From a virus (taxonomy: Duplodnaviria; Heunggongvirae; Uroviricota; Caudoviricetes): DNA of 29,509 bases. The notes under the pieces were generated by a model that was not told where the DNA came from, made no database searches, and saw only the letters and a program-made list of their open reading frames with translations. Location of the stretch: positions 1 through 29,509 of the IMG/VR virus record IMGVR_UViG_2718218398_000001; one strand, 5' to 3'. The first letter of the stretch is position 1. Every line of letters begins with the position of its first letter. Both the position numbers and the translations under genes were made by a program. Below, in pieces: positions 3,277-21,951 of this stretch.

Positions 3277-4143
3277 ATGCAAAGAATTATTCCTGATAAA
3301 AATTGGTGGGAAAAAGAGCGTATTAATCGTAAAGCATCATCAATATGCCCATATGCTAGTTCATACAGATGTCCTCGATACTATCAGAGTGTAGTTTTGC
3401 TCTCAAGCATCAATGTGATAGCTGGTATGGCAACTAGGAAAGAAAAAGAGTTGGGCGAATTTTGGGAAAGAACCACTTTCTCATCTTTATGTGATGAAGA
3501 AGTCCCTACAGTTACTACAAAAGAATATGGCGGCCTTGCATCAGTTAGTAATTTTTGCCCAGAAATATCATTTAGATATTTACACTACTACGCCGATTAT
3601 ATGTGTAAATATGTTGATGAGATAGATCAGGACACTGGCAGGCGTATTGCGGAAAAAGATAATTTAGAAAATGATTGGAAATATACATGGATGTCAGTCA
3701 ATCCTAAATTTTATTTAGATTGCGATGTTTTTGAAAGTGTCAAAAATTTTAATGAAGAATTGGCTAGTGATTACTTAAAAAGATTGCACCCAAATATCGT
3801 TCAGCAAATAGATAGAATGAATAATTGCTTGGATAATAATGATCCGGCAGGTGCACTGCACGCAGCCTCTAATATTTTAGAAACTATGGCTAAGGAAATC
3901 ACTCAAAACCCGAATGTGGCAAATGAGTCATTGGGTGGTTTTTTTAAACAGTTCGAAAAAATGTCAAAATTACCTAAGAATCTTATTGATGCTGTTAAAG
4001 ATATTTATGATTTACGCAACAAATTACCTACTGCTGGACACGGAAGCTTGAACAAGCCTGAATTGACTATGGTAGAAGCTATAACTATTGCGGCAATGAC
4101 AAAGGCGATTTTAGAAATTGAATATCGAAGCAAAGCCATCTAA
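3277..4143 (+). CDS. Hypothetical protein (288 aa) with Cys-rich N-terminus and HEPN/Abi_C-like C-terminal signature
   Basis: Intact ORF in low-GC DNA. N-terminal cysteines (CPYASSYRCPRYY, FCPE, MCKY, LDCD). C-terminal helical region with LRNKLPTAGHG (R at 4015, H at 4039), resembling the RN...HG signature of Abi_C/DUF4145-type HEPN domains. The R-H spacing is longer than canonical Rx4-6H. Confidence 0.5.
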   Translation: MQRIIPDKNWWEKERINRKASSICPYASSYRCPRYYQSVVLLSSINVIAGMATRKEKELGEFWERTTFSSLCDEEVPTVTTKEYGGLASVSNFCPEISFRYLHYYADYMCKYVDEIDQDTGRRIAEKDNLENDWKYTWMSVNPKFYLDCDVFESVKNFNEELASDYLKRLHPNIVQQIDRMNNCLDNNDPAGALHAASNILETMAKEITQNPNVANESLGGFFKQFEKMSKLPKNLIDAVKDIYDLRNKLPTAGHGSLNKPELTMVEAITIAAMTKAILEIEYRSKAI

Positions 4144-4270
4144 CAAACCAAATTATGTGGTTCAAATTCCCGCTACACTTCTGTGTTGCCGCCAGCGTCT
4201 ACTTATCGCTGTGAGTTCAACGGGTGATGATGCGTTAGAGATCTCTGAATCGATTGAAGTCTAAGGTTGT

Positions 4271-4292
4271 CAGGGCTGTAACAGCAGCCCTG
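4271..4292. terminator. Stem-loop between convergent genes (candidate bidirectional terminator)
   Basis: cagggctg (4271..4278), loop taacag, cagccctg (4285..4292). Sits in the 250-bp gap between the 3' ends of 3277..4143 (+) and 4393..5047 (-). Confidence 0.35.
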
Positions 4293-4392
4293 TGTCATGA
4301 ATGGATTGCATATTAATTGACGAAGAACAGACTAATATCATCGATAGCTGTTTTCAAAAATAGACCAATAACAAACTGAGATGTTATCGTAT

Positions 4393-5047
4393 TCATTTCG
4401 ATGATTGATCCAGATGTGTATATAACCATTGAAAGAGTTTTCTAATTTTTGTGATAGTATCTTTTAAATAATTTAAGGAGATTATTATATTATTTTCATT
4501 GTTTAATGAAAGAGTAGGTGTTTTATCAATGATATTTTTTAAGGCTACAGCTGTGCTCATTTTTTTAATGTCTCCATTAGCATGAACTATGCAATTCCTT
4601 ACTTTGTTAAACTCTGTCATGAATTGCCACTCTTGTGACAGGCCAAAGTTTATATCCATTAATTTTGTTAAATATCTTTTTGCTTTGTGGATGCCATCAC
4701 CATTAAAATCGGTTACTGATATATTGGTGTTTACAATCCTTTGACATATATTGCAATAGTCGTTTAGGTTGTGCTCTAAGCATGAGTATAAAGATACCAA
4801 AGCAGATTTATTAAAAAATATTTGGTTGTATGTTAACTAAGAAATCATATTGCTCTGAATAATAGTCTTCTAAGTAATTAATATAATCGTCAGGAGCATT
4901 CTTTTTTTCATCTTCATATGCTTTTTTTAATTCCGCTAAGTCAACTCTGTTTTGGCCGCCTGCTCCTAGGATATATTTTTCGAAATCATCAATCTGCGCT
5001 TCAAGTGAATATCTTGATAGCTGTGCGAAAAGTTTGTATTTACTCAT
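4393..5047 (-). CDS. HEPN-like protein, candidate abortive-infection RNase; split into two ORFs (4811..5047 and 4393..4800) by a 1-nt frame change at an A6/T6 run
   Basis: Minus-strand ORFs of 78 aa and 135 aa are contiguous; the upstream one ends at a TAATAA double stop directly after a T6 run (plus-strand A6 at 4814..4819). Removing one T fuses them into about 215 aa (...NIQPNIF-NKSALVSLYSC...). Canonical HEPN motif R-N-C-I-V-H (Rx4H) encoded at 4582..4599, followed by a predicted helix. Confidence 0.5.
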
Positions 5048-5446
5048 CGGTATGCCATTCCTTTTTAATTATAAACCTTTGGGTTAAAAGGAGCTGAAAA
5101 TAGTAACTCATTATTTTTGTTTGTAAAGGGGGTATTGTTTTTACTAGATCAAGATAAAACAATGGGAATATCCGCTTTTCGCTCACAGCGGACTTTCATC
5201 TTTGTAAACCCGTATGATTAGCTTTTCAGCGGTCATTCAGATACGGATTTACGCTTCCCTTGGCTGTGCATGACTATGACGCATGAGATCGCATGATCGT
5301 TAGAGGATCGTTTTTGCTGAGGCCAGCCAGAACTGGCGTGCTTTTGCTTATGTCGTGCAGGTGCATGAAAACCACTACATAAAGCGGGCAGGCGTGGCGG
5401 GGATACGAGCGCGCGCTTATTACTTTGATAGTACTCGGGTTATAAT

Positions 5447-7129
5447 ATGGATGACTATCTATCTCGGAGAATGTACATGTCATTAGACTATATTAAAGAA
5501 CAGTTGTCAGACTTTATTTCATCTGCAGAACCTGAGGTAATGGCTATTCAGGGTGAGTGGGGGATTGGGAAAACCTATACTTGGAATGCTTTCTTAAAGG
5601 AAAATAAAAATAAGATTGCATTTAATAGATATAGTTACGTCTCTCTTTTTGGTGTTAATTCATTGGACGCATTAAAATACTCCATCTTTGAAAATACAAT
5701 TACGAAAGATTTCATTGGAAACAAACCTAATTTAAAAACAGCAACACAAAATGCAAAGGGGCTTCTTGAATCCTGCACTAGAAAGACCGCTCGTGTGTTA
5801 AAAGATACACCTTTTTTGAAAAATTTCACTACGACACTTGAGTCAATGTCATTTATGTCAATTACTAATGTTATTGTAGTCATAGATGACTTAGAAAGAC
5901 GTGGTAAAAATTTAGAAGTGAAAGATGTCTTAGGGTTGGTTTCTTTATTGAAAGAACAAAAAAATTGTAAGGTGGTTCTTTTACTTAATAACGGGACAAG
6001 TGGTATGGATGACTACTCCACTTATAAAGAAAAGGTTATTGATAGAGAGATTACCTATAATCCTACTCCAGAAGAATGTGCAGTTATAGCATATAAAAAT
6101 AATTCTGATGTTCATAAATTATTAAGCAAATACTCCATTTCCCTGGGTATTAAGAATATTAGGATACTGAAAAAAATAGAGCGGTTTTTGCTAGCCTTGT
6201 TACCTGGCATTAACGTTAATTTTGAAAAAATTGCAAATGAAGTCGCACACTCCTTAACTTTGTATTGTTGGAGTCATTACGCATTTACTCCAGATGGAGA
6301 TGTACCATCATTGGAGTATATTAGAAATATGAGAAATATCTATATGCGTGATGAAAAAGAGGATGGAAAAGAAAAAAAATGGCTTAATACTTTGCTTATA
6401 TATGATTATAAAAAAACAAACGAACTTGATGAAGTCCTTATAGACATGGTAAGGCATGGATATATTGATATGAACAATTTCCAAAGGCAAGTAAGTCTAA
6501 GGAATGATGAACTTATCCGTGATAGTAAGCGAGGTTCACTGTTTGAAGCATGGAAGCTTTTCTATAATTCATTTGAAGATAACCGAAATCAGGTTATTGA
6601 TAATCTATATCAAGCGGTGGTTGGTGGGATAGAGTATGTAACTCCAAGTGACTTGGATAGTGTTGTCGGACTGTATAGAGATTTAGGTGAAAATATTAAA
6701 GCAAGTGAATTAATAAGTAAATTTATTAATTACGGCAATGATGCTCTTAAGGAATATGTTCAATCTATTTACATGAATGTTCATCCTATAAAAGATGCTG
6801 AGTTAAAGTCAAAAATCCAAGATTATTCTACTACTTTAAATCTGGATGGTTCTATAAAGGATGTTCTAATAAAATTATCAAGTCAGAATGGTTGGTCTGA
6901 TAGGCACGAGGAAATATTGGATGCTGCCTCAGAGGATGACTACTATGATTTATTTAAAAAAGTCATTCTTGATGGTGGTGATTCAATAATAGCTACTGCT
7001 CTTAAGTTTGGTGGGTATAGCAATGGTTCAGAAAGAATGAAACGCATCGGAGAAAAAGCGAGAAATGCTTTGATAAGAATTGGAAATGAGTCGAGCATTA
7101 ATAAAATACGTGTTAGACGGTATTTGTAA
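5447..7129 (+). CDS. KAP-family P-loop NTPase (560 aa)
   Basis: Walker A GEWGIGKT (5552..5575). Walker B plus the KAP-characteristic hhhhDDLER/DR motif NVIVVIDDLERR (about 5870..5902). Long alpha-helical C-terminal region. Low-GC codon usage. The true start is more likely ATG 5477 (RBS GGAGA at 5466..5470) than 5447. Confidence 0.7.
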   Translation: MDDYLSRRMYMSLDYIKEQLSDFISSAEPEVMAIQGEWGIGKTYTWNAFLKENKNKIAFNRYSYVSLFGVNSLDALKYSIFENTITKDFIGNKPNLKTATQNAKGLLESCTRKTARVLKDTPFLKNFTTTLESMSFMSITNVIVVIDDLERRGKNLEVKDVLGLVSLLKEQKNCKVVLLLNNGTSGMDDYSTYKEKVIDREITYNPTPEECAVIAYKNNSDVHKLLSKYSISLGIKNIRILKKIERFLLALLPGINVNFEKIANEVAHSLTLYCWSHYAFTPDGDVPSLEYIRNMRNIYMRDEKEDGKEKKWLNTLLIYDYKKTNELDEVLIDMVRHGYIDMNNFQRQVSLRNDELIRDSKRGSLFEAWKLFYNSFEDNRNQVIDNLYQAVVGGIEYVTPSDLDSVVGLYRDLGENIKASELISKFINYGNDALKEYVQSIYMNVHPIKDAELKSKIQDYSTTLNLDGSIKDVLIKLSSQNGWSDRHEEILDAASEDDYYDLFKKVILDGGDSIIATALKFGGYSNGSERMKRIGEKARNALIRIGNESSINKIRVRRYL

Positions 7130-7134
7130 TTTGG

Positions 7135-7152
7135 GGGGGATTTTCATCCCCC
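7135..7152 (+). terminator. Hairpin terminator candidate after the KAP NTPase gene
   Basis: ggggga / ttttca / tccccc stem-loop 6 nt after the stop at 7127..7129, followed by a T-rich stretch (cacattttat). Confidence 0.4.
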
Positions 7153-7163
7153 ACACATTTTAT

Positions 7164-8195
7164 CTAATTCAATGAATAATCTTTGAAGGCTATTATTTTT
7201 TTCTTTAGCCAAATATTAATTTCTACAAGTCTTTTTTGTAAAGGAGTTAACTCATTTCGCACAAAAACGCAACTGGCTTTTTCTATATCCCCAAACCCCC
7301 CAACATTGTTTGGCATTATCCCCATCATCTGCGGCGGCACACGATGCGCCGCCATCATGTCATCCCGACTTACGTTCTTGATGTTAAGAAATTCATCCTT
7401 CGCCGCGACTTCTGACAATGGGATGATCTGAAGCCCGTCTTTTTTGCCGTTAGGCGAGTACATAAACAGGTTGCGGAAGTTGCCTGGACCTTTGGCACTT
7501 TTCATCGCGTTGCGGAGGTTGTTCACATCCTCCTGATTCTGCGCGGCGTCGGTCATGTACATGATGAAGCCTGCATGGCTGCCGTTGATGTAATACTTAC
7601 GGCGGAACAGCGTGGCGGACTCGTTGAGCAGGGCGGATGGAATGGCAGAAAGATAGCCGGGCAGGCCGTAGATCTCCTGGTTGATGTCCGGCTCCATCAG
7701 ATGAAAAATGCTGCCTTTCGTGAACTGATACGGCTGGGTTGTCATACCGTATTGCACAAACCAGTAGGTATCCAGGTCTAACCCACGTCGGGTGTATTTT
7801 GCCAGAGCAGGCTCAAGGGCGATAACTTCACCGAACCGGTTCGTGCGTTTCTCCAGGTAAGCGTTACCAAATACCAGATAGTCCTGCACAAAACGTGAAA
7901 AAGCCTGCTGGCTGAGAAGCGGGTGAGGGATGTAGGTACTGGTCAGAATGTTGCATTTCACCGCAATTGGTGAACTGTGATGCACGGCAGCGCGGAAGGT
8001 TCGCGCCAGTCCGTCAAAACTCACTGGCGGCTCATACCAGCGATCTGTCTGTACGCATTCTACATAGTCCAGCAGTTCGCGGCGGTCCAGAACAGGAACG
8101 GGATCGCCAAAGCTGAATGCTTCGGCTGAAGTCTGGCTTTTGTGCTGAATCTGGTTCGTCGACACAGCGCGGTTCTTCTTACTCTTTCCCATCAA
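7164..8195 (-). CDS. Q: Portal protein gpQ
   Basis: 343-aa product, the same size as P2 gpQ and collinear with it by recall. Lies directly upstream of terminase P on the same strand, with the 4-bp overlap typical of P2 Q/P. The last ~45 codons are encoded in AT-rich DNA. Confidence 0.85.
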   Translation of the reverse strand: MMGKSKKNRAVSTNQIQHKSQTSAEAFSFGDPVPVLDRRELLDYVECVQTDRWYEPPVSFDGLARTFRAAVHHSSPIAVKCNILTSTYIPHPLLSQQAFSRFVQDYLVFGNAYLEKRTNRFGEVIALEPALAKYTRRGLDLDTYWFVQYGMTTQPYQFTKGSIFHLMEPDINQEIYGLPGYLSAIPSALLNESATLFRRKYYINGSHAGFIMYMTDAAQNQEDVNNLRNAMKSAKGPGNFRNLFMYSPNGKKDGLQIIPLSEVAAKDEFLNIKNVSRDDMMAAHRVPPQMMGIMPNNVGGFGDIEKASCVFVRNELTPLQKRLVEINIWLKKKIIAFKDYSLN

Positions 8196-9959
8196 AAAAT
8201 CTCCACAATATTGCTGGTATTGGCGGACTCGCCCTGCAGCGGTTCGTTAAACAGTGCGTGCATTGTTGCCCACGCCAGATCGGCATGGCTGGCTTCTTCG
8301 CTGCGGCTGGCTTCATAGGTCGGGCGGTTGCCGCTGGCGGTGGTGGCGCGACGGATTGCCATAAATGACTGCGCTATGTCGGTGTGTCCGGCGTCAAACT
8401 CCAGACGGCGGTGACTGATAATGTCGTAGGCCTTGAGTACCAGGGCATTTTTAACGTTGGGGTTGTAGACAAACTCCCGGACGGCAGGAAAAAACGCTTT
8501 CACGTTCTCGTAAACCCCGTGACCGACGCCGGTTGAGTCGATACCGATGTATGTCACGTTGTACTGTTCAGTCAGTTTTTTGATGGCGTCAGCCTGGGCG
8601 CGGAAGTCCATCCCGCGCCACTGGTGACGCTCAAGAATGCGGAACTTACCGCCCGGCACGGCTGGCGGTGCCACCACCACGCATCCGGCGCTGTCGCCGT
8701 TCTGCGTACCTTTTGCCGGGTCATAACCGATCCACACTTCGCGCCAGCCAAACGGGCGCAGCGCCAGTGCATGAAAGTCGGTCCAGACTTCCCAGCTGTC
8801 CACCATGCACGCCTGTAGTTCGCTGAGCGGGAACACGGACGCGAGATCGTCCACAAACTCGCACATCAGCAGGTTCTGGTATTCGTCCGGGCTGTATTCC
8901 ATGCGCAACTGGTCAAGGTCGAACAGGTTACAGCCACCGCGCACCGCATCTTCCACGGTGACTATCTGGCGGTATTGCCCGTCAGCGCACAGCAGGCCGG
9001 GGGCCAGATTGCTGTGGGACAGATCAATGTCCACCTTGTCGGCTTTGTTGCGTCCACGGTTGAACAGCGCACCGGACCAGAACGGATAAGCACTGTGGGT
9101 CAGGCTGGATGGTGTGGAAAAAATAGGTCTGCCGCCATTTCTTGTGAATAGCCATACCGGAAGCCACTTTGCGTAGCTCCTGAAATTTCGGTATCCAGAA
9201 ATATTCATCCAGATACAGGTTGCCGTGATAACTCTGGGCCGTGCGGGCATTGGTGCCGAGGAAGTAAAGCGTGGCCCCGTTAGGAAGCACCATCGGATCG
9301 CCTTTCAGTTCCACATCCACTTCTTTGGCGAAGTCGATGATGTACTGCTTAAAGACGTGGGCCTGTGCCTTACTGGCGGAAAGGAAAATCTGGTTACGTC
9401 CGGTAAGCAGGGCGTCAATCAGGGCTTCACGGGCAAAGTAAAAGGTCGCGCCGATCTGGCGTGACTTCAGCAGGTTGCGGATGCGGTTGGTTTTTCCGGC
9501 TTCCCACCAGTGGCGCTGGTAGTTGAACATGGAGGAATGGAAGATTTCTTCCAGCTTCTCAATCTGTTCATCGGTGAAGACATTCTTTTCCGGCTGACGG
9601 CGCGGGCCTTTGTTGCGGTTGGCGACGTTAGGGTTTAAGTCAGCTTCGTTGCCGCCATTGTTAAACTTGCCGATCCGCGCGTGGCGCTCAGACTGGCGCG
9701 CCAGCAGGTCAATCTCTTTGAAATCTTTCCCTTCTTTGTGCTCCTTCATAATGAGCTGGCAGTAGCGTGCGGCGGTGGTGAGCTGCATCTGATCCAGCGG
9801 CCCATAGTCACCCCACTTGTCGCGTTTTTTCCAGCTGTGAACGGTTGCAACTTTCTCGCCCAGCATTTCAGCAATGCGGGCGACGCGGTATCCCTGAAAG
9901 TACAGCAGCATGGCCTGCCGACGGGGATCGAGATCTGCGGGTGTCAGTGTGGTGTTCAT
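8192..9959 (-). pseudogene. P: Terminase large (ATPase) subunit gpP, frame-disrupted
   Basis: Two overlapping minus-strand ORFs (9024..9959 and 8192..9250) together span 1768 bp, about 589 aa, the size of P2 gpP. One frame change in the 9024..9250 overlap. Confidence 0.85.
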
Positions 9960-17815: not shown

Positions 17816-18413
17816 TCTGCTGCCACCGGGTTCAACTTCACTGGAGCGCCGACTGGCGCAAACCTGTAGCGGGATTTCTGATCTGCAGGTGCCGCTGCGT
17901 GACTTGTGGAATCCGGCTACCTGTCCGGTCAGCTTCCTGCCTTATCTCGCCTGGGCGTTCTCTGTGGATCGCTGGGACGAGGGCTGGACAGAAAGCGTCA
18001 AACGCCAGGTAGTGAAGGATGCTTTTTATATTCATCAGCATAAAGGAACCACCAGTGCCGTGCGGCGGGTGGTGGAACCGTTCGGATTCCTGATCCGCAT
18101 TATTGAGTGGTGGCAGACCGGAGAGGCTCCGGGCACGTTTCGCCTGGATATCGGCGTGCAGGACCAGGGCATCACTGAAGATACCTATCTGGAACTTGAG
18201 CGACTGATAAGCGATGCCAAACCATGTAGCCGCCACATGATCGGCATGTCCATCAATCTGCAGACCAGCGGCCCGCATTGGGTGGGAGCCGCCAGCTATC
18301 TTGGCGAAGAAATCACGATCTATCCGTATATCAACGAAACAATTATTTCTGGCGGCACCGCGCATGAAGGCGGGGCGGTCCATGTTATTGACACAATGAG
18401 AGTGAATCCATGA
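17808..18413 (+). CDS. I: Baseplate assembly protein gpI
   Basis: 201-aa product in conserved P2 order. Confidence 0.8.
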   Translation: MNSLLPPGSTSLERRLAQTCSGISDLQVPLRDLWNPATCPVSFLPYLAWAFSVDRWDEGWTESVKRQVVKDAFYIHQHKGTTSAVRRVVEPFGFLIRIIEWWQTGEAPGTFRLDIGVQDQGITEDTYLELERLISDAKPCSRHMIGMSINLQTSGPHWVGAASYLGEEITIYPYINETIISGGTAHEGGAVHVIDTMRVNP

Positions 18414-19792
18414 GCACAAAATTTTATACCCTGCTGACGGATATTGGCGCGGCGAAACTTGCCAGCGCCGCCGCGCTCGGTGTGCCGCTAAAAATTACCC
18501 ATATGGCGGTGGGCGATGGTGGCGGAACATTGCCGACGCCGGACGCAAAGCAGAGTGCACTGGTAAATGAGAAACGTCGGGCTGCGCTGAATATGCTCTA
18601 TATCGACCCACAGAACAGCAGCCAGATTATTGCTGAACAGGTGATCCCTGAAAACGAGGGCGGTTGGTGGATACGTGAAGTGGGCCTGTTTGATGAGTCA
18701 GGGGCATTGATTGCCGTGGGCAACTGCCCGGAAAGCTATAAGCCGCAACTGGCTGAAGGCAGCGGGCGTACCCAGACCGTGCGCATGGTGCTGATTACCA
18801 GCAGCACGGACAATATCACCCTGAAAATCGACCCTGCTGTAGTGCTGGCAACCCGCAAGTATGTGGATGACAAGGCACTGGAGCTGAAGGTGTACGCGGA
18901 TGATCAGATGGCAAAACATCTTGCCGCACCGGACCCGCATTCACAGTATGCAGCCAAAGAAAGTCCTACGTTTACCGGGACACCCAAAGCGCCAACGCCA
19001 GCGACGGGGAATAACACCACGCAGGTTGCGACCACCGCATTTGTTCAGGCGGCACTGACGGCTCTTATTAATGATGCGCCAGCCACGCTGGACACGCTGA
19101 AAGAAATAGCCGTAGCCATTAACAATGATCCGAAATTCAGTACCACCATTAACAATGCGCTGGCACTGAAAGCGCCGCTGTCGAGTCCGGCACTCACCGG
19201 AACGCCAACCGCACCGACTGCGGCACAGTCGGTCAACAATACACAGATTGCCACCACGGCATTTGTGAAATCGGCGATTGCGGCAATGGTGGGTTCTGCA
19301 CCTGCGGCACTGGATACACTGAACGAACTGGCGGCGGCGCTGGGGAATGACCCGAACTTTGCCACGACAATGCTTAATGCACTGGCAGGTAAACAACCGC
19401 TGGACAATACGCTGACTAATTTGAGTGGAAAGGATGTTGCTGGTCTTCTCGCATACCTTGGTTTGGGAGAAGCGGCAAAACGGAATGTGGGAACAGGGGA
19501 AAATCAGATACCTGATATGTCAGCTTATTCATCAGGATCTGGCTGGCAAAAATTGCCTGATGGTTCAATTGAACAGTGGGGAAGAATTAATTTCCCGAAT
19601 AACGCCGCGGCGGTATCTACAAATGTGACTTTCACCATTCCTTTTACGCAGGAGCCAGACGTAGTGATTGTATATGACGGCGGTTTTGGTGGTGGGAATA
19701 TGTGGGGCGCAACTAACTGGACGAAAACAGGTTTCGTTGCTCATTGTAACTATGGCTTTGAAGGTGGAGCCTTCTACGCGAAAGGGCGTTAA
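18410..19792 (+). CDS. H: Tail fibre protein gpH (constant N-terminal part plus invertible C-terminal receptor-binding part)
   Basis: 460-aa product with a conserved N-terminus (MSTKFYTLLTDIGAAKLA...). The C-terminal region after the LGLGE crossover point (about 19459) lies inside the invertible segment. Confidence 0.85.
   Translation: MSTKFYTLLTDIGAAKLASAAALGVPLKITHMAVGDGGGTLPTPDAKQSALVNEKRRAALNMLYIDPQNSSQIIAEQVIPENEGGWWIREVGLFDESGALIAVGNCPESYKPQLAEGSGRTQTVRMVLITSSTDNITLKIDPAVVLATRKYVDDKALELKVYADDQMAKHLAAPDPHSQYAAKESPTFTGTPKAPTPATGNNTTQVATTAFVQAALTALINDAPATLDTLKEIAVAINNDPKFSTTINNALALKAPLSSPALTGTPTAPTAAQSVNNTQIATTAFVKSAIAAMVGSAPAALDTLNELAAALGNDPNFATTMLNALAGKQPLDNTLTNLSGKDVAGLLAYLGLGEAAKRNVGTGENQIPDMSAYSSGSGWQKLPDGSIEQWGRINFPNNAAAVSTNVTFTIPFTQEPDVVIVYDGGFGGGNMWGATNWTKTGFVAHCNYGFEGGAFYAKGR
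18962..19402 (+). repeat. Tandem protein-coding repeat in H (two units of about 73 aa, phage tail-fibre repeat)
   Basis: SPTFTGTPKAPTPATGNNTTQVATTAFVQAAL...DTLKEIAVAINNDPKFSTTINNALALKAPL is followed by SSPALTGTPTAPTAAQSVNNTQIATTAFVKSAI...DTLNELAAALGNDPNFATTMLNALAGKQPL. Confidence 0.7.
19446..19471. other. Inversion crossover site (hix/gix/cix-like, 26 bp) inside H
   Basis: ttctcgcatacc TT ggtttgggagaa: 12-bp imperfect inverted half-sites around a central TT. 21 of 26 positions match the reverse complement of the site at 21304..21329, including a perfect 14-bp block. Confidence 0.75.
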
Positions 19793-19794
19793 TT

Positions 19795-20235
19795 ATGAAA
19801 TATTTGTATGTTGATAATCTGGCGTACCCTTATGCCCTCCAGTCTGTTTACGCTGCAAAAGGCCAATGGCCCGAAGGTAAAGGCGTGGATATAGACGAAG
19901 CTATTTTCAGGGAATATTTCCATGATACGCCGCCTGACGGTAAGTACAGAATTACCGGAGACGATGGAATGCCAGCATGGGCAGATGTTCCACCGCCAAC
20001 ACGTGAAGAACAAATTGCATCAGCCGAAACTAAAAAGCAGCAATTGATTAATCAGGCCAACGATTATATGAACAGTAGACAATGGGCTGGTAAAGCGGCT
20101 ATTGGTCGTCTGAAAGGTGAGGAACTGGCGCAATATAATTTGTGGCTGGATTATCTGGACGCACTGGAGCTGGTCGATACTTCCAGTGCACCAGATATTG
20201 AATGGCCTACTCCTCCGGCAGTTCAGGCCAGATGA
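19795..20235 (+). CDS. Tail fibre assembly chaperone (Tfa, gpG-like), orientation-specific copy
   Basis: 146-aa product with the conserved Tfa C-terminus (...LWLDYLDALELVDTSSAPDIEWP). Immediately follows H. Confidence 0.8.
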   Translation: MKYLYVDNLAYPYALQSVYAAKGQWPEGKGVDIDEAIFREYFHDTPPDGKYRITGDDGMPAWADVPPPTREEQIASAETKKQQLINQANDYMNSRQWAGKAAIGRLKGEELAQYNLWLDYLDALELVDTSSAPDIEWPTPPAVQAR

Positions 20236-20809
20236 CATCCGGCGCGGTGCTGATATCTGTTGCCGTCACCGCGTCAATGTAATCCAGCACAGCGTTAAGC
20301 CGGGTTGTTTCTGCCTGCGTCAGTTTCCGCCCGGCCTGTAATTTCAGTTGAATCAGACTAATGGAAGCCATTGCAGTATCAATCAGTGACTGACGCTGTG
20401 CTTCTGCCGCGTCTACTGCGGCGCGATGCTGTGCCTCAGTATCGGTCACCCATTTCTCACCATCCCATTTATCGTATGGCGTTAATGGGGCGATAGTGGT
20501 TGTATTTTCGGGGTAATCACCCGGAGTTGTGATTTCTTTGGTGTCTCCCGTTTCGGTGTTATAGACGATTTCACCGCGATGGTCTGGCACATATTCCCAT
20601 GAGTTTAAATCTGCCGAACGGCAGATTGCATAACCAGCCTTATGTATACCAGGTTCATCCAGACAGGAATATGCCGGGATACCAACACCAACGGCAAGAT
20701 ATTCATTTGAAGTGGAAATATATTCCCGAGTTTCACCATCATAGCTATAGACGGTAATATTCCCCGCCTTCGTGGCAATAAGCTCGCTATTTAATACAGC
20801 GTTATCCAT
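20207..20809 (-). CDS. Alternative tail fibre assembly chaperone (Tfa') for the inverted orientation
   Basis: 200-aa minus-strand product with a Tfa-type C-terminus (...LNAVLDYIDAVTATDISTAPDVIWPELPEE), converging on and overlapping the plus-strand tfa by 29 bp. Confidence 0.75.
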   Translation of the reverse strand: MDNAVLNSELIATKAGNITVYSYDGETREYISTSNEYLAVGVGIPAYSCLDEPGIHKAGYAICRSADLNSWEYVPDHRGEIVYNTETGDTKEITTPGDYPENTTTIAPLTPYDKWDGEKWVTDTEAQHRAAVDAAEAQRQSLIDTAMASISLIQLKLQAGRKLTQAETTRLNAVLDYIDAVTATDISTAPDVIWPELPEE

Positions 20810-21316
20810 TATGCAGCTCTCACAATATAATTAAATGACGTATTACGTGGTCGTACTGATATCCATGCACTATAAAAACCGTCTTCTGCTGTTCTCTGCG
20901 TTCCCGTAATGGAGTTATCAGACGAAGCTGGAACATAGTTACTGCTGTCGCCAGCTTTAGAATTAGCAGGTATCCCGCTTGTTTGTACTTTATCGGCGGA
21001 AGCAAATGCTATCCCCACCTTGACAGAGGTTGTTGTATCAACCCCGTAATAATCCTGTAACGCTGTACGAATAAAAGTTGCATCCTGACCACTGAGTAGT
21101 GATCGTCCACTGTCTACACCGCGTCCATCATCCCAGCCACGAATAAACTCACCGCGTAAATCAGGCAATTTATTTGTCGGGTAAGCCTTTGCCAGTTCCG
21201 GGTATTCTTCAGCAGAAAAAGCTGCACCATTGCATTTCAACCAGCCTGTCGGTGGTGTAGCTGAAGGCCACGGAACAGGCACACCAACCGGTAATGCTGA
21301 ACCTTCTCCCAAACCA
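20809..21316 (-). CDS. Alternative tail fibre C-terminal (receptor-binding) segment, promoterless, expressed only after inversion
   Basis: The minus-strand ORF encodes ...LGLGEGSALPVGVPVPWP..., sharing the LGLGE junction with H at the crossover site. Its stop overlaps the Tfa' start (TAATG). The six-frame ORF extends to 21357, but sequence beyond the site is outside the segment. Confidence 0.7.
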
Positions 21317-21329
21317 ACGTTTAAGAAAA
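21304..21329. other. Inversion crossover site (hix/gix/cix-like, 26 bp), inverted partner of 19446..19471
   Basis: ttctcccaaacc AA cgtttaagaaaa: the central dinucleotide AA is complementary to the TT of the partner site. Lies just upstream of the invertase gene. Confidence 0.75.
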
Positions 21330-21384
21330 TGCAGAGGTAACAGCTAACTGGCATCATCTCCGGTTTTTATTCAGGGGGATGATC

Positions 21385-21951
21385 ATGCTTATTGGCTATG
21401 TACGCGTGTCAACAAATGACCAGAACACCGATTTGCAACGTAATGCACTGAACTGCGCGGGATGTGAGCGGATTTTTGAGGACAAAATCAGTGGCACTAA
21501 GTCCGACAGACCGGGGCTGAAAAAACTACTCAGGACACTATCGGCAGGAGACACGCTGGTTGTCTGGAAGCTGGACAGGTTGGGGCGCAGTATGCGGCAT
21601 CTTGTTACGCTGATAGAAGAGTTGCGCCAGCGTGGTGTGAATTTCAGAAGCCTGACTGACAGTATTGATACCAGTACCCCAATGGGCCGTTTCTTTTTTC
21701 ATGTCATGGGTGCCCTGGCTGAAATGGAACGCGAACTGATAGTTGAACGTACCAGGGCAGGGCTGGCTGCAGCTCGTGCCAAAGGCAGAGTAGGTGGACG
21801 CCGTCCTAAGTTGACCACCGAACAGTGGGCACAGATTGGGCGTTTACTCGAGGCCGGAGAATCAAGACAGCGTATTGCACTGATTTTTGATGTAGGCGTT
21901 TCTACCATTTATAGAAAATTTCCGGCAAATAAGATCAATGAATCCCCCTGA
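21385..21951 (+). CDS. pin: Serine recombinase, DNA invertase of the Gin/Hin/Cin/Pin family
   Basis: MLIGYVRVSTNDQNTDLQRNAL... is near-identical at the N-terminus to Gin/Cin/Pin, including catalytic Ser in YVRVSTNDQ. C-terminal HTH (GVSTIYRKF). Start is probably ATG 21385; the ORF opens at 21379. Confidence 0.9.
   Translation: MLIGYVRVSTNDQNTDLQRNALNCAGCERIFEDKISGTKSDRPGLKKLLRTLSAGDTLVVWKLDRLGRSMRHLVTLIEELRQRGVNFRSLTDSIDTSTPMGRFFFHVMGALAEMERELIVERTRAGLAAARAKGRVGGRRPKLTTEQWAQIGRLLEAGESRQRIALIFDVGVSTIYRKFPANKINESP

Follow-up and report, generated by a model that had tools for sequence, protein, structure and literature searches.

The closest phage-tested relative that we found for the gene described here is Reve, a one-gene ATPase/KAP defence system from a P4-satellite hotspot that was validated in a 2026 study in Nucleic Acids Research (NAR; PMC13586616). 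Our gene lies in a 29,509-nt stretch of viral DNA (IMG/VR record IMGVR_UViG_2718218398_000001, positions 1 to 29,509), hereafter the window, which is a P2-like prophage. It encodes a protein of the KAP class of P-loop NTPases, and we refer to the gene and its product as the KAP gene and KAP protein and to the protein together with its homologues as the family. We consider it rather probable that the KAP gene is a stand-alone accessory of P2-like prophages that gives the lysogen a soluble, one-protein defence against phages, acting in the manner proposed below.

The construct taken as Reve (pFD425) restricts all seven of the Drexlerviridae phages tested (7/7), by 40-fold to 4e5-fold, and also Bas58 and Bas63; on lambda, T4, T5, T7 and P1 it has no effect of at least 10-fold that is consistent across both replicates. 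Like the KAP protein, Reve is encoded by a single gene of similar size (586 vs 550 aa) that forms the cargo directly after the cos+CGCGCG of a P2/P4-type element, and its authors' annotation matches ours, with PF07693, AAA_22 (PF13401) and, as the top Foldseek match, the human ORC motor module. Reve, however, is carried by a satellite and the KAP protein by a helper phage; Reve is the rarer of the two (19 E. coli genomes vs 127 for the family); and Reve has been tested against phages, whereas defence by the family is a prediction.

Several other described systems bear comparison. PifA of the F plasmid, the founding bacterial KAP member and the agent of T7 exclusion, resembles the KAP protein in having no transmembrane (TM) helices, in being borne by a mobile element and in carrying a Walker B DDL(D/E)R followed by a Y..(E/Q)K.I motif. 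It differs in its length (740 aa), in its score on PF07693 (148 bits vs 35), in a match to the family profile that is only local (19%), and in being regulated by PifC; its reported mode of action is membrane depolarisation and leakage (PMC13001434). Four further one-gene KAP NTPases, EF_KAP and three from gut metagenomes, were reported in PLoS Biology in 2026 to restrict phages, and defence by EF_KAP requires its Walker B and its C-terminal region and is, according to the authors, not abortive infection (PMC13552941). This group, which has Firmicutes hosts and which we compared by description and Pfam family only, shares with the KAP protein the joining of a KAP P-loop domain to a C-terminal region of unknown fold in one gene, but EF_KAP has two predicted TM helices and the KAP protein none. 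An original prediction for this gene, made from the letters of the window alone, had called the mechanism of KAP NTPases in defence islands largely uncharacterised; that description is now partly outdated, as single-gene KAP NTPases are known to restrict phages (PMC13552941, PMC13586616).

Tmn, of the YobI family, is likewise a one-protein P-loop NTPase with a role in defence, sensing T2 RIIB and raising ATP turnover, but it has two TM helices within its P-loop domain and is characterised by a decameric pore, Mg2+ export and plasmolysis, whereas the KAP protein has no TM segment and no PADLOC tmn match. QatA (from qatABCD), which binds DNA, is a predicted KAP-family defence NTPase, and RADAR has a ring-forming ATPase of its own, RdrA. 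Both proteins assemble into rings of 7 or 8 subunits, and both depend on operon partners (QatBCD and RdrB, respectively), and no such neighbours are found at the KAP locus. STAND proteins, including Avs and the bacterial NLR-like sensors, combine an NTPase switch with C-terminal helical repeats as the KAP protein does, but the KAP protein lacks an N- or C-terminal effector domain, and of the 42 members compared, 38 score better with KAP. Finally, the old and tin exclusion genes of P2 are, like the KAP gene, accessory genes in the gpA-gpQ hotspot beside cos, differing in that they lie on the opposite side of cos and encode unrelated proteins. This cos-adjacent defence hotspot was defined by Rousset et al. 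2022 (PMC9122126), whose Table S5A lists the exact protein found here (WP_001726290) as "KAP_NTPase" and gives the same label to an 80% allele (WP_023147874), with many and varied companions.

The KAP gene and its product

The features of the gene are as follows; residue numbers follow the 550-aa protein, and invariance was judged over 42 sequences.

5417 to 5476, plus strand: promoter-like leader at the start of the cargo, with -35, -10 and Shine-Dalgarno (SD) motifs; homology breaks at 5417
5477 to 7129, plus strand: KAP-family P-loop NTPase gene, most likely extent (PF07693, 34.9 bits; PDC-S49, E 2e-25; phrog_4740, E 7e-145)
5552 to 5575, plus strand: Walker A, GEWGIGKT (G26, W28, G29, G31, K32 and T33 invariant)
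5876 to 5902, plus strand: Walker B and KAP signature, VVIDDLERR (I136, D137, D138, L139, E140 and R141 invariant)
5978 to 6043, plus strand: LLLNN and YKEKVID (N171, E185, K186 and D189 invariant)
6146 to 6175, plus strand: GIKNIRILKK in the lid (I225, N227, I228 and R229 invariant), aligning with TNIRI of Reve
6287 to 7126, plus strand: C-terminal all-alpha domain (residues 271-550), modelled as about 280 aa of helical repeats
7132 to 7153, no strand assigned: hairpin where the KAP and portal genes converge, with a G/C-rich stem of 7 bp, a T-run after it and a terminator-like match

An intact open reading frame (ORF) of 560 aa from its first ATG runs from 5447 to 7129 on the plus strand, as originally predicted, but translation probably starts at the second in-frame ATG, 30 nt downstream at 5477. 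Three observations favour this start: all 41 aligned homologue starts coincide with it, reading 'MS...'; an SD-like GGAG (5466-5469) sits 8 nt upstream of it; and a perfect TATAAT (5441-5446) would overlap the ATG at 5447. The gene therefore most likely spans 5477 to 7129 and encodes 550 aa, with 5447 an upstream in-frame ATG. The TATAAT forms the -10 element of the leader, preceded by an 18-nt spacer and a weak -35 (TTATTA, 5417-5422); a sigma-70 consensus scan of 5417-5476 called no promoter, and the leader may nonetheless act as one. Public entries of 614-615 aa (for example at 4365-6209 of locus L006, and P0004) start further upstream and read through cos. Their upstream extension is absent from homologues, and they are annotation artefacts.

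The frame did not arise by chance, because it stays open for 550-560 codons in DNA of 32.7% GC, because its product is 100% identical to a widespread 550-aa E. coli protein (P0001 and WP_001726290, the 90% cluster of which holds 191 member sequences), and because the ratio of non-synonymous to synonymous substitution rates (dN/dS) is low, at 0.09-0.13 (0.13 against the allele at 80% nucleotide identity). The gene is thus under purifying selection. These observations also bear on the idea that it is a decaying remnant in a degenerating prophage. Three other genes of the window are frameshift-split, each into two ORFs, namely gene A (373-2203), the HEPN-like gene (4393-5047) and the terminase gene (8192-9959), the last of these splits being known only from its two ORFs. 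The KAP ORF, however, is intact, and both its identity to a widespread protein and its dN/dS speak against decay. Moreover, the frameshifts are 1-nt changes mostly in short base runs, which are also compatible with assembly error: relative to an E. coli prophage of 99.6% identity, single-nucleotide indels occur in the window at 170, 193, 381, 970, 2445 and 4813, most of them in such runs, and these could be either assembly errors or early decay. We regard a decaying KAP gene as extremely improbable.

The KAP family had been predicted from the motifs, and searches of the protein bear this out. In Pfam, KAP_NTPase (PF07693) alone exceeds its curated threshold (34.9 bits vs 20; E 1.3e-8; positions 6-231 of the 293 in the profile); it is matched by 38 of the 42 family members (E ≤ 0.01), with NB-ARC second at 13, while AAA_22, AAA_16 and NB-ARC all fall below their own Pfam cut-offs with the KAP protein itself (NB-ARC, 14.9 vs 23.5 bits). 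PADLOC returns PDC-S49, a candidate family (E 2.2e-25, 87.5 bits, profile positions 9-443 of 624), in a match that leaves the last ~115 residues of the protein uncovered and that recurs in 42 of 42 family members (best E 3e-29). The full-length match is to phrog_4740, a PHROG of unknown function (E 7e-145), and both of these labels thus signify a candidate or an unknown function. NCBIfam has no model for the protein, and a sequence search of the Protein Data Bank with the family profile gave nothing (best E 0.12).

Had the protein belonged to a rival clade of NTPases, such as the ABC or AAA type exemplified by AriA, the original prediction would have failed, but no such family exceeded its cut-off in Pfam, and PADLOC reported PDC-S49 only. 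The ABC-type ATPases AriA/PARIS, GajA, PtuA and Old gave no match at E ≤ 0.1 in PADLOC or Pfam. We also rejected membership of Tmn/YobI, QatA or RdrA (no PADLOC match, no TM segment, no conserved partner genes) and of the STAND class (NB-ARC/NACHT; Avs), NB-ARC being under its cut-off and there being no domain before the P-loop and no C-terminal enzyme fold. Taking the KAP family as defined by Pfam and by statements in later papers, the protein is a peripheral, soluble member, since only the segment from Walker B to "EK.I" aligns with PifA.

The Walker A and Walker B motifs had been read correctly from the translation and proved invariant. DDLDR in PifA and IIDDLER in Reve are the aligned counterparts of the Walker B segment; the KAP motif after it, YKEKVID, corresponds in the alignments to YLQKIIQ (PifA) and HKEKVIS (Reve). 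N171 ends strand 4 of the AlphaFold2 (AF2) model and may have a sensor-1-like role, and R229 is a candidate sensor-2 arginine. Taken together, the invariant residues look like a complete catalytic set, with their individual roles inferred.

The AF2 model (mean pLDDT 82) comprises a P-loop core of five strands (residues 1-195), a lid of helices extending to ~270 and an all-alpha C-terminus; residues 97-119, with pLDDT below 50, lie inside a basic segment (~80-130) between Walker A and Walker B. The N-terminal part is an AAA+/ORC-like P-loop domain with its lid. No TM segment is predicted in the protein, the highest 19-residue Kyte-Doolittle mean being 1.28; TM helices in or beside the NTPase domain are typical of many KAP members but not of all, PifA being without them (PMC13001434). 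The original prediction had suggested that structure prediction might show an effector or a sensor domain towards the C-terminus. We find no effector there, the last ~280 aa showing no nuclease, NADase, pore or other recognisable effector or enzyme fold, but in the model this region does consist of helical repeats, in keeping with published descriptions of the KAP family, which place an alpha-helical or superhelical region after the NTPase. The best structural matches of the protein are Orc/Cdc6 initiators and TnsC, with NLRs and Apaf-1 also among the matches; Avs3 sensor repeats are among the matches to the C-terminus, and RdrA is a weak match at rank 25. As modelled, the C-terminal ~280 aa look like a scaffold for binding or sensing rather than a recognisable enzyme. 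Among distant members the NTPase core is best conserved (55% identity) and the C-terminus least (35%), and dN/dS is higher for the C-terminus (0.13-0.16 vs 0.04-0.10).

We compared the protein directly with Reve, translating the Reve fragment (UnknownSys7) of Dataset E1 (preprint 10.64898/2026.02.27.708500) to 586 aa. The two proteins are 26% identical by blastp over residues 21-243 (E 2e-12), and hhalign aligns the family profile with Reve at a probability of 97.8% (E 1e-12) over 223 columns, which cover the NTPase and its lid. The motifs GEWGxGKT, SxxGxNSL, IDDLER, KEKVI and NIRI are common to Reve and the family. On these comparisons, the family appears to be a sister family of Reve and not the same family.

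Two cargo slots split by cos

The following features surround the gene.

3277 to 5047, no strand assigned: cargo of the other slot, outside the KAP module (a protein of 288 aa that matches Abi_C weakly, and a HEPN-like gene)
5266 to 5416, no strand assigned: conserved cos region, P2-like backbone, by alignment to the annotated cosR flank of P2
5391 to 5409, no strand assigned: homologue of the 19-nt cohesive end, GGCGTGGCGGGGATACGAG, by comparison with the annotated cohesive ends of P2 and 186
7164 to 8195, minus strand: portal gene gpQ (backbone; Pfam Phage_portal)

The KAP gene ends a low-GC island at ~2.9-7.13 kb (32-37% GC vs ~55% for the phage; the gene itself 32.7% vs 54.7%). At the left end of the window, a DinI-like gene accompanies replication gene A (Phage_GPA in Pfam), and to the right of the island lie portal gpQ and the terminase genes on the minus strand, followed by scaffold, capsid and tail genes on the plus strand. 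The original prediction had seen a GC-rich block upstream of the KAP gene and counted it as a flank of the module. A GC-richer stretch does exist at ~5180-5440, but it does not belong to the module. Positions 5266-5419 are 88-93% identical across 80 P2-like phage records, and the window's cohesive end is matched at 14 of 19 positions by P2 cosL (GGCGAGGCGGGGAAAGCAC) and over the first 13 nt by the cos of phage 186 (GGCGTGGCGGGGAAAGCAT), in both cases with homologous flanks. The block is thus the cos site of the phage, which is backbone and not cargo, and the KAP gene begins 68 nt from the cohesive end.

Within the gpA-gpQ hotspot, cos separates two cargo slots, and these recombine independently. 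The KAP gene fills the slot on the portal side of cos, and the Abi_C-like and HEPN-like genes fill the opposite one. As expected of hotspot cargo, the KAP gene lies between gpA and gpQ beside cos, varies among prophages and is of foreign composition. Cos-portal cargoes all begin right after cos+CGCGCGC, each with its own leader, and the same junction, cos+CGCGCG, marks the start of the cargo in the Dataset E1 fragments from P4 satellites. Homology to a prophage with a different cargo breaks at 5417 and resumes only at 7215, and the final ~17 codons of gpQ (7164-7214) differ among prophages in step with the adjacent cargo, so the recombination junction lies inside the 3' end of the portal gene. 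In P2 and 186 the cos-portal slot is empty, with only a ~170-nt spacer, and old and tin of P2 occupy the slot across cos from the portal side, the same one that holds the Abi_C-like and HEPN-like genes here.

The two sides assort freely. At least eight E. coli genomes carry the Abi_C/HEPN pair at ~99% identity and no KAP gene, their cos-portal cargo being an 81-aa protein and a protein of the LPO_1073/Vpar_1526 family. Conversely, the KAP gene occurs with at least six different gene sets across cos, the five other than that of the window being one protein of 111 aa, one of 141 aa, two proteins together (66 and 260 aa), an HsdR_N/AAA/S1 protein of 883 aa, and an LA2681 HEPN protein; the window's own combination of the KAP gene with the Abi_C/HEPN pair is found in no complete E. 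coli genome. Because cos intervenes and the two sides assort independently, the KAP gene is a solo module. The predicted hairpin downstream is present as a stem-loop with a T-run. The hairpin at this site differs between KAP alleles, one per allele, and it is likely to be a bidirectional intrinsic terminator that moves with the cargo. Since each KAP allele carries its own leader and hairpin, the module is self-contained and untied to the HEPN genes. The original description of the gene as the largest cargo gene and a self-contained module is thus right on both counts, and is strengthened by the comparative genomics.

These results bear on the case for a multi-gene system, in which the KAP NTPase would be the sensor and the Abi_C-like and HEPN-like genes its partners, with a HEPN RNase as the effector. 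The 288-aa protein (3277-4143, plus strand) has a sub-threshold Abi_C match at its C-terminus. The HEPN-like gene (4393-5047, minus strand) is split by a 1-nt insertion at 4813, with an intact 217-aa version in E. coli PEC422; its protein carries RNCIVH, and the 135-aa ORF gives a weak RTasHEPN match in PADLOC (E 4e-6). HMM scans matched the pair to no named system, and the two genes are possibly a two-gene cargo in their own right. That these genes lie within 2.2 kb of the KAP gene in one low-GC island, that one of them bears the RNCIVH motif with its RTasHEPN match, and that a different HEPN protein is found across cos from another KAP allele would all fit a coupled system. However, cos lies between them, the slots assort independently with no complete E. 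coli genome holding both, no partner is conserved in 80 species, and in the window it is the HEPN gene that is frameshifted and the KAP gene that is intact. Coupling to the HEPN gene is accordingly very hard to credit, and pairing the KAP gene with its HEPN-like neighbours, as was originally suggested for a test of function, is poorly motivated because they occupy a separate, independently recombining slot across cos.

Distribution of the family

The KAP gene is present in 127 of 5,426 complete E. coli genomes, always as a single chromosomal copy. Twelve of these copies are at least 95% identical and ~115 are the ~80% allele, a count that clonal sampling has perhaps inflated; a third allele, 44% identical, occupies the same slot in Salmonella and E. 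coli. Two E. coli chromosomal loci beside ybjL (L001 and L006) are P2 remnants which, in both loci inspected, lack the region from portal and terminase through most of gene D and keep the KAP gene and its cross-cos partner. L006 has the ~80% allele (that of more than 100 genomes), with the 883-aa HsdR_N/AAA/S1 protein as partner. The retention of cargo in these remnants suggests that it is the host that retains it.

Beyond E. coli, a profile search of 1.84 billion cluster representatives gave 1,725 clusters (50% identity) at E ≤ 1e-30, and among the top 150 representatives nearly all are full-length, at 546-607 aa. We examined 80 species-level loci, from Gamma-, Beta- and Alphaproteobacteria, Desulfobacterota, Myxococcota, cyanobacteria and Leptospira, and also from Bacteroidota, Nitrospinota, an Acidobacteriota metagenome-assembled genome and several lineages of the candidate phyla radiation (CPR). 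The contexts found beyond P2-like prophages are lambdoid prophages, a CP4-57-like island, plasmids and plain chromosomal sites; homologues occur on Klebsiella plasmids of ~110 kb and in a 109-kb Escherichia phage record. No conserved partner gene emerged when ORFs within 3.5 kb were compared by all-against-all blastp, any one flanking family being shared by 5 of the 80 loci at most. When the 144 nearest neighbours were classified with Pfam and PADLOC, they proved to be a mix of integrases, portals, scattered known defence genes and housekeeping genes, the defence genes including Dsr1, ThsA, LmuA, Old, GajA, AriA-like proteins and restriction enzymes. In lambdoid prophages of Cronobacter (L016-L019), a 47%-identical homologue lies in the accessory region between the replication genes and antiterminator Q, flanked by a pentapeptide-repeat protein and an AbiJ_NTD4 protein, and this locus may be another small defence cluster.

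Another way to view the KAP protein is as a servant of the element's own life cycle, an ORC/Cdc6-like ATPase for replication, maintenance or the control of cos and packaging. Its top structural matches, Orc/Cdc6 and TnsC, are consistent with this, as are the position of the gene 68 nt from the cohesive end, the partition systems carried by about a quarter of P2 hotspots (PMC9122126), and the homologues on plasmids and in the 109-kb phage record. The ORC-like match is generic, however, spanning only the AAA+ base and lid, and the protein showed neither a winged helix nor any other DNA-binding domain that could be recognised. The gene is absent from P2 and 186 and present in only 127 of the 5,426 E. 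coli genomes, it is kept in prophage remnants without packaging genes, and it takes up unrelated positions in lambdoid prophages, islands and chromosomes of many phyla. A life-cycle role is, in our judgement, improbable.

Proposed mode of action

We return to defence of the lysogen as the function we favour. In the mechanism that we propose, and whose individual steps we hold less firmly than the explanation as a whole, the divergent C-terminal helical repeats would bind a trigger made by the infecting phage. Binding would then switch the AAA+/ORC-like NTPase to an oligomeric form with NTP hydrolysis, for which the ring-forming QatA and RdrA, Orc/Cdc6 and the STAND proteins provide analogues. 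Lastly, the NTP-driven assembly might itself block the infection, by holding or remodelling a phage component or nucleic acid, and possibly by consuming NTP. We invoke the assembly itself as the means of interference, rather than a killing enzyme, because neither an effector fold nor a membrane anchor was found in the protein. What the sequence analyses establish is the architecture of the protein, its intact and conserved motifs, its solo status and mobility, purifying selection, and the homology of its NTPase module to that of Reve; defence by the family, sensing through the C-terminus, oligomerisation and the manner of blocking infection are inferred.

The target need not be a lytic phage. 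The KAP gene could instead be a conflict gene directed at P4-type satellites, rival P2-like prophages or plasmids, or else an addiction or toxic stabilising module. Relatives of P2 can be targets of hotspot systems, which can also influence P4 transfer (PMC9122126), plasmid-borne PifA causes abortive infection with membrane damage (PMC13001434), and QatA is dispensable for part of the defence range of its own system (PMC13279940). Set against this, direct restriction of lytic phages has been shown for Reve and for four further KAP NTPases encoded by single genes, there is no conserved antitoxin-like partner, and the family extends far beyond the host range of P2 and P4. Such a role is unlikely, although we give it some weight.

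Several points weigh against one-protein defence by the KAP gene. We found no experiment on the family in the literature, including PMC9122126, and a literature search for PDC-S49 found no mention of it. The Pfam score is modest (PifA reaches 148 bits on PF07693), and the PifA profile match is weak (hhalign, 19%). With respect to Reve, the equation of Reve with UnknownSys7 and pFD425 was drawn from the order of the supplementary files, the C-terminal halves of Reve and the KAP protein (~300 aa) do not align, and with unrelated C-termini and 26% identity the Reve phenotype may not transfer. The lack of a recognisable effector fold is no proof that the C-terminus is non-catalytic. Finally, many of the genes directly adjacent to it in other species have housekeeping roles.

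It is plausible that the family is a new sister family within a kind already known, that of the KAP NTPases which defend as single genes from the cos hotspots of P2 and P4. This changes no concept, as the locus, the gene and the family label are already catalogued. A broader idea, which we find attractive but doubtful, is that the family is a widespread one-protein immune sensor that has no dedicated killing enzyme and would stop infection by using NTP to capture or remodel, with its helical repeats, some conserved component of the phage. The NTPase module it shares with Reve would then be a switch that can be combined with different C-terminal recognition domains. If defence is confirmed, the family would be a very widespread addition to what is so far a short list of KAP NTPases that give immunity as single genes, and the KAP protein and Reve, with a shared switch and unrelated C-termini, form a clean pair for domain swaps addressing sensing and effector-less blocking. 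The gene would then also be a prophage-borne resistance determinant that could matter for host range in phage therapy; it is retained, too, in the prophage remnants of a large, mostly human-derived group of E. coli.

Elsewhere in the window, the tail-fibre module at 18410-21951 coincides with a GC dip. It contains a second, inverted set of tail-fibre C-terminus and chaperone at 20207-21357 (minus strand) and a serine invertase at 21379-21951 (Resolvase and HTH_7), and looks like an invertible host-range switch.

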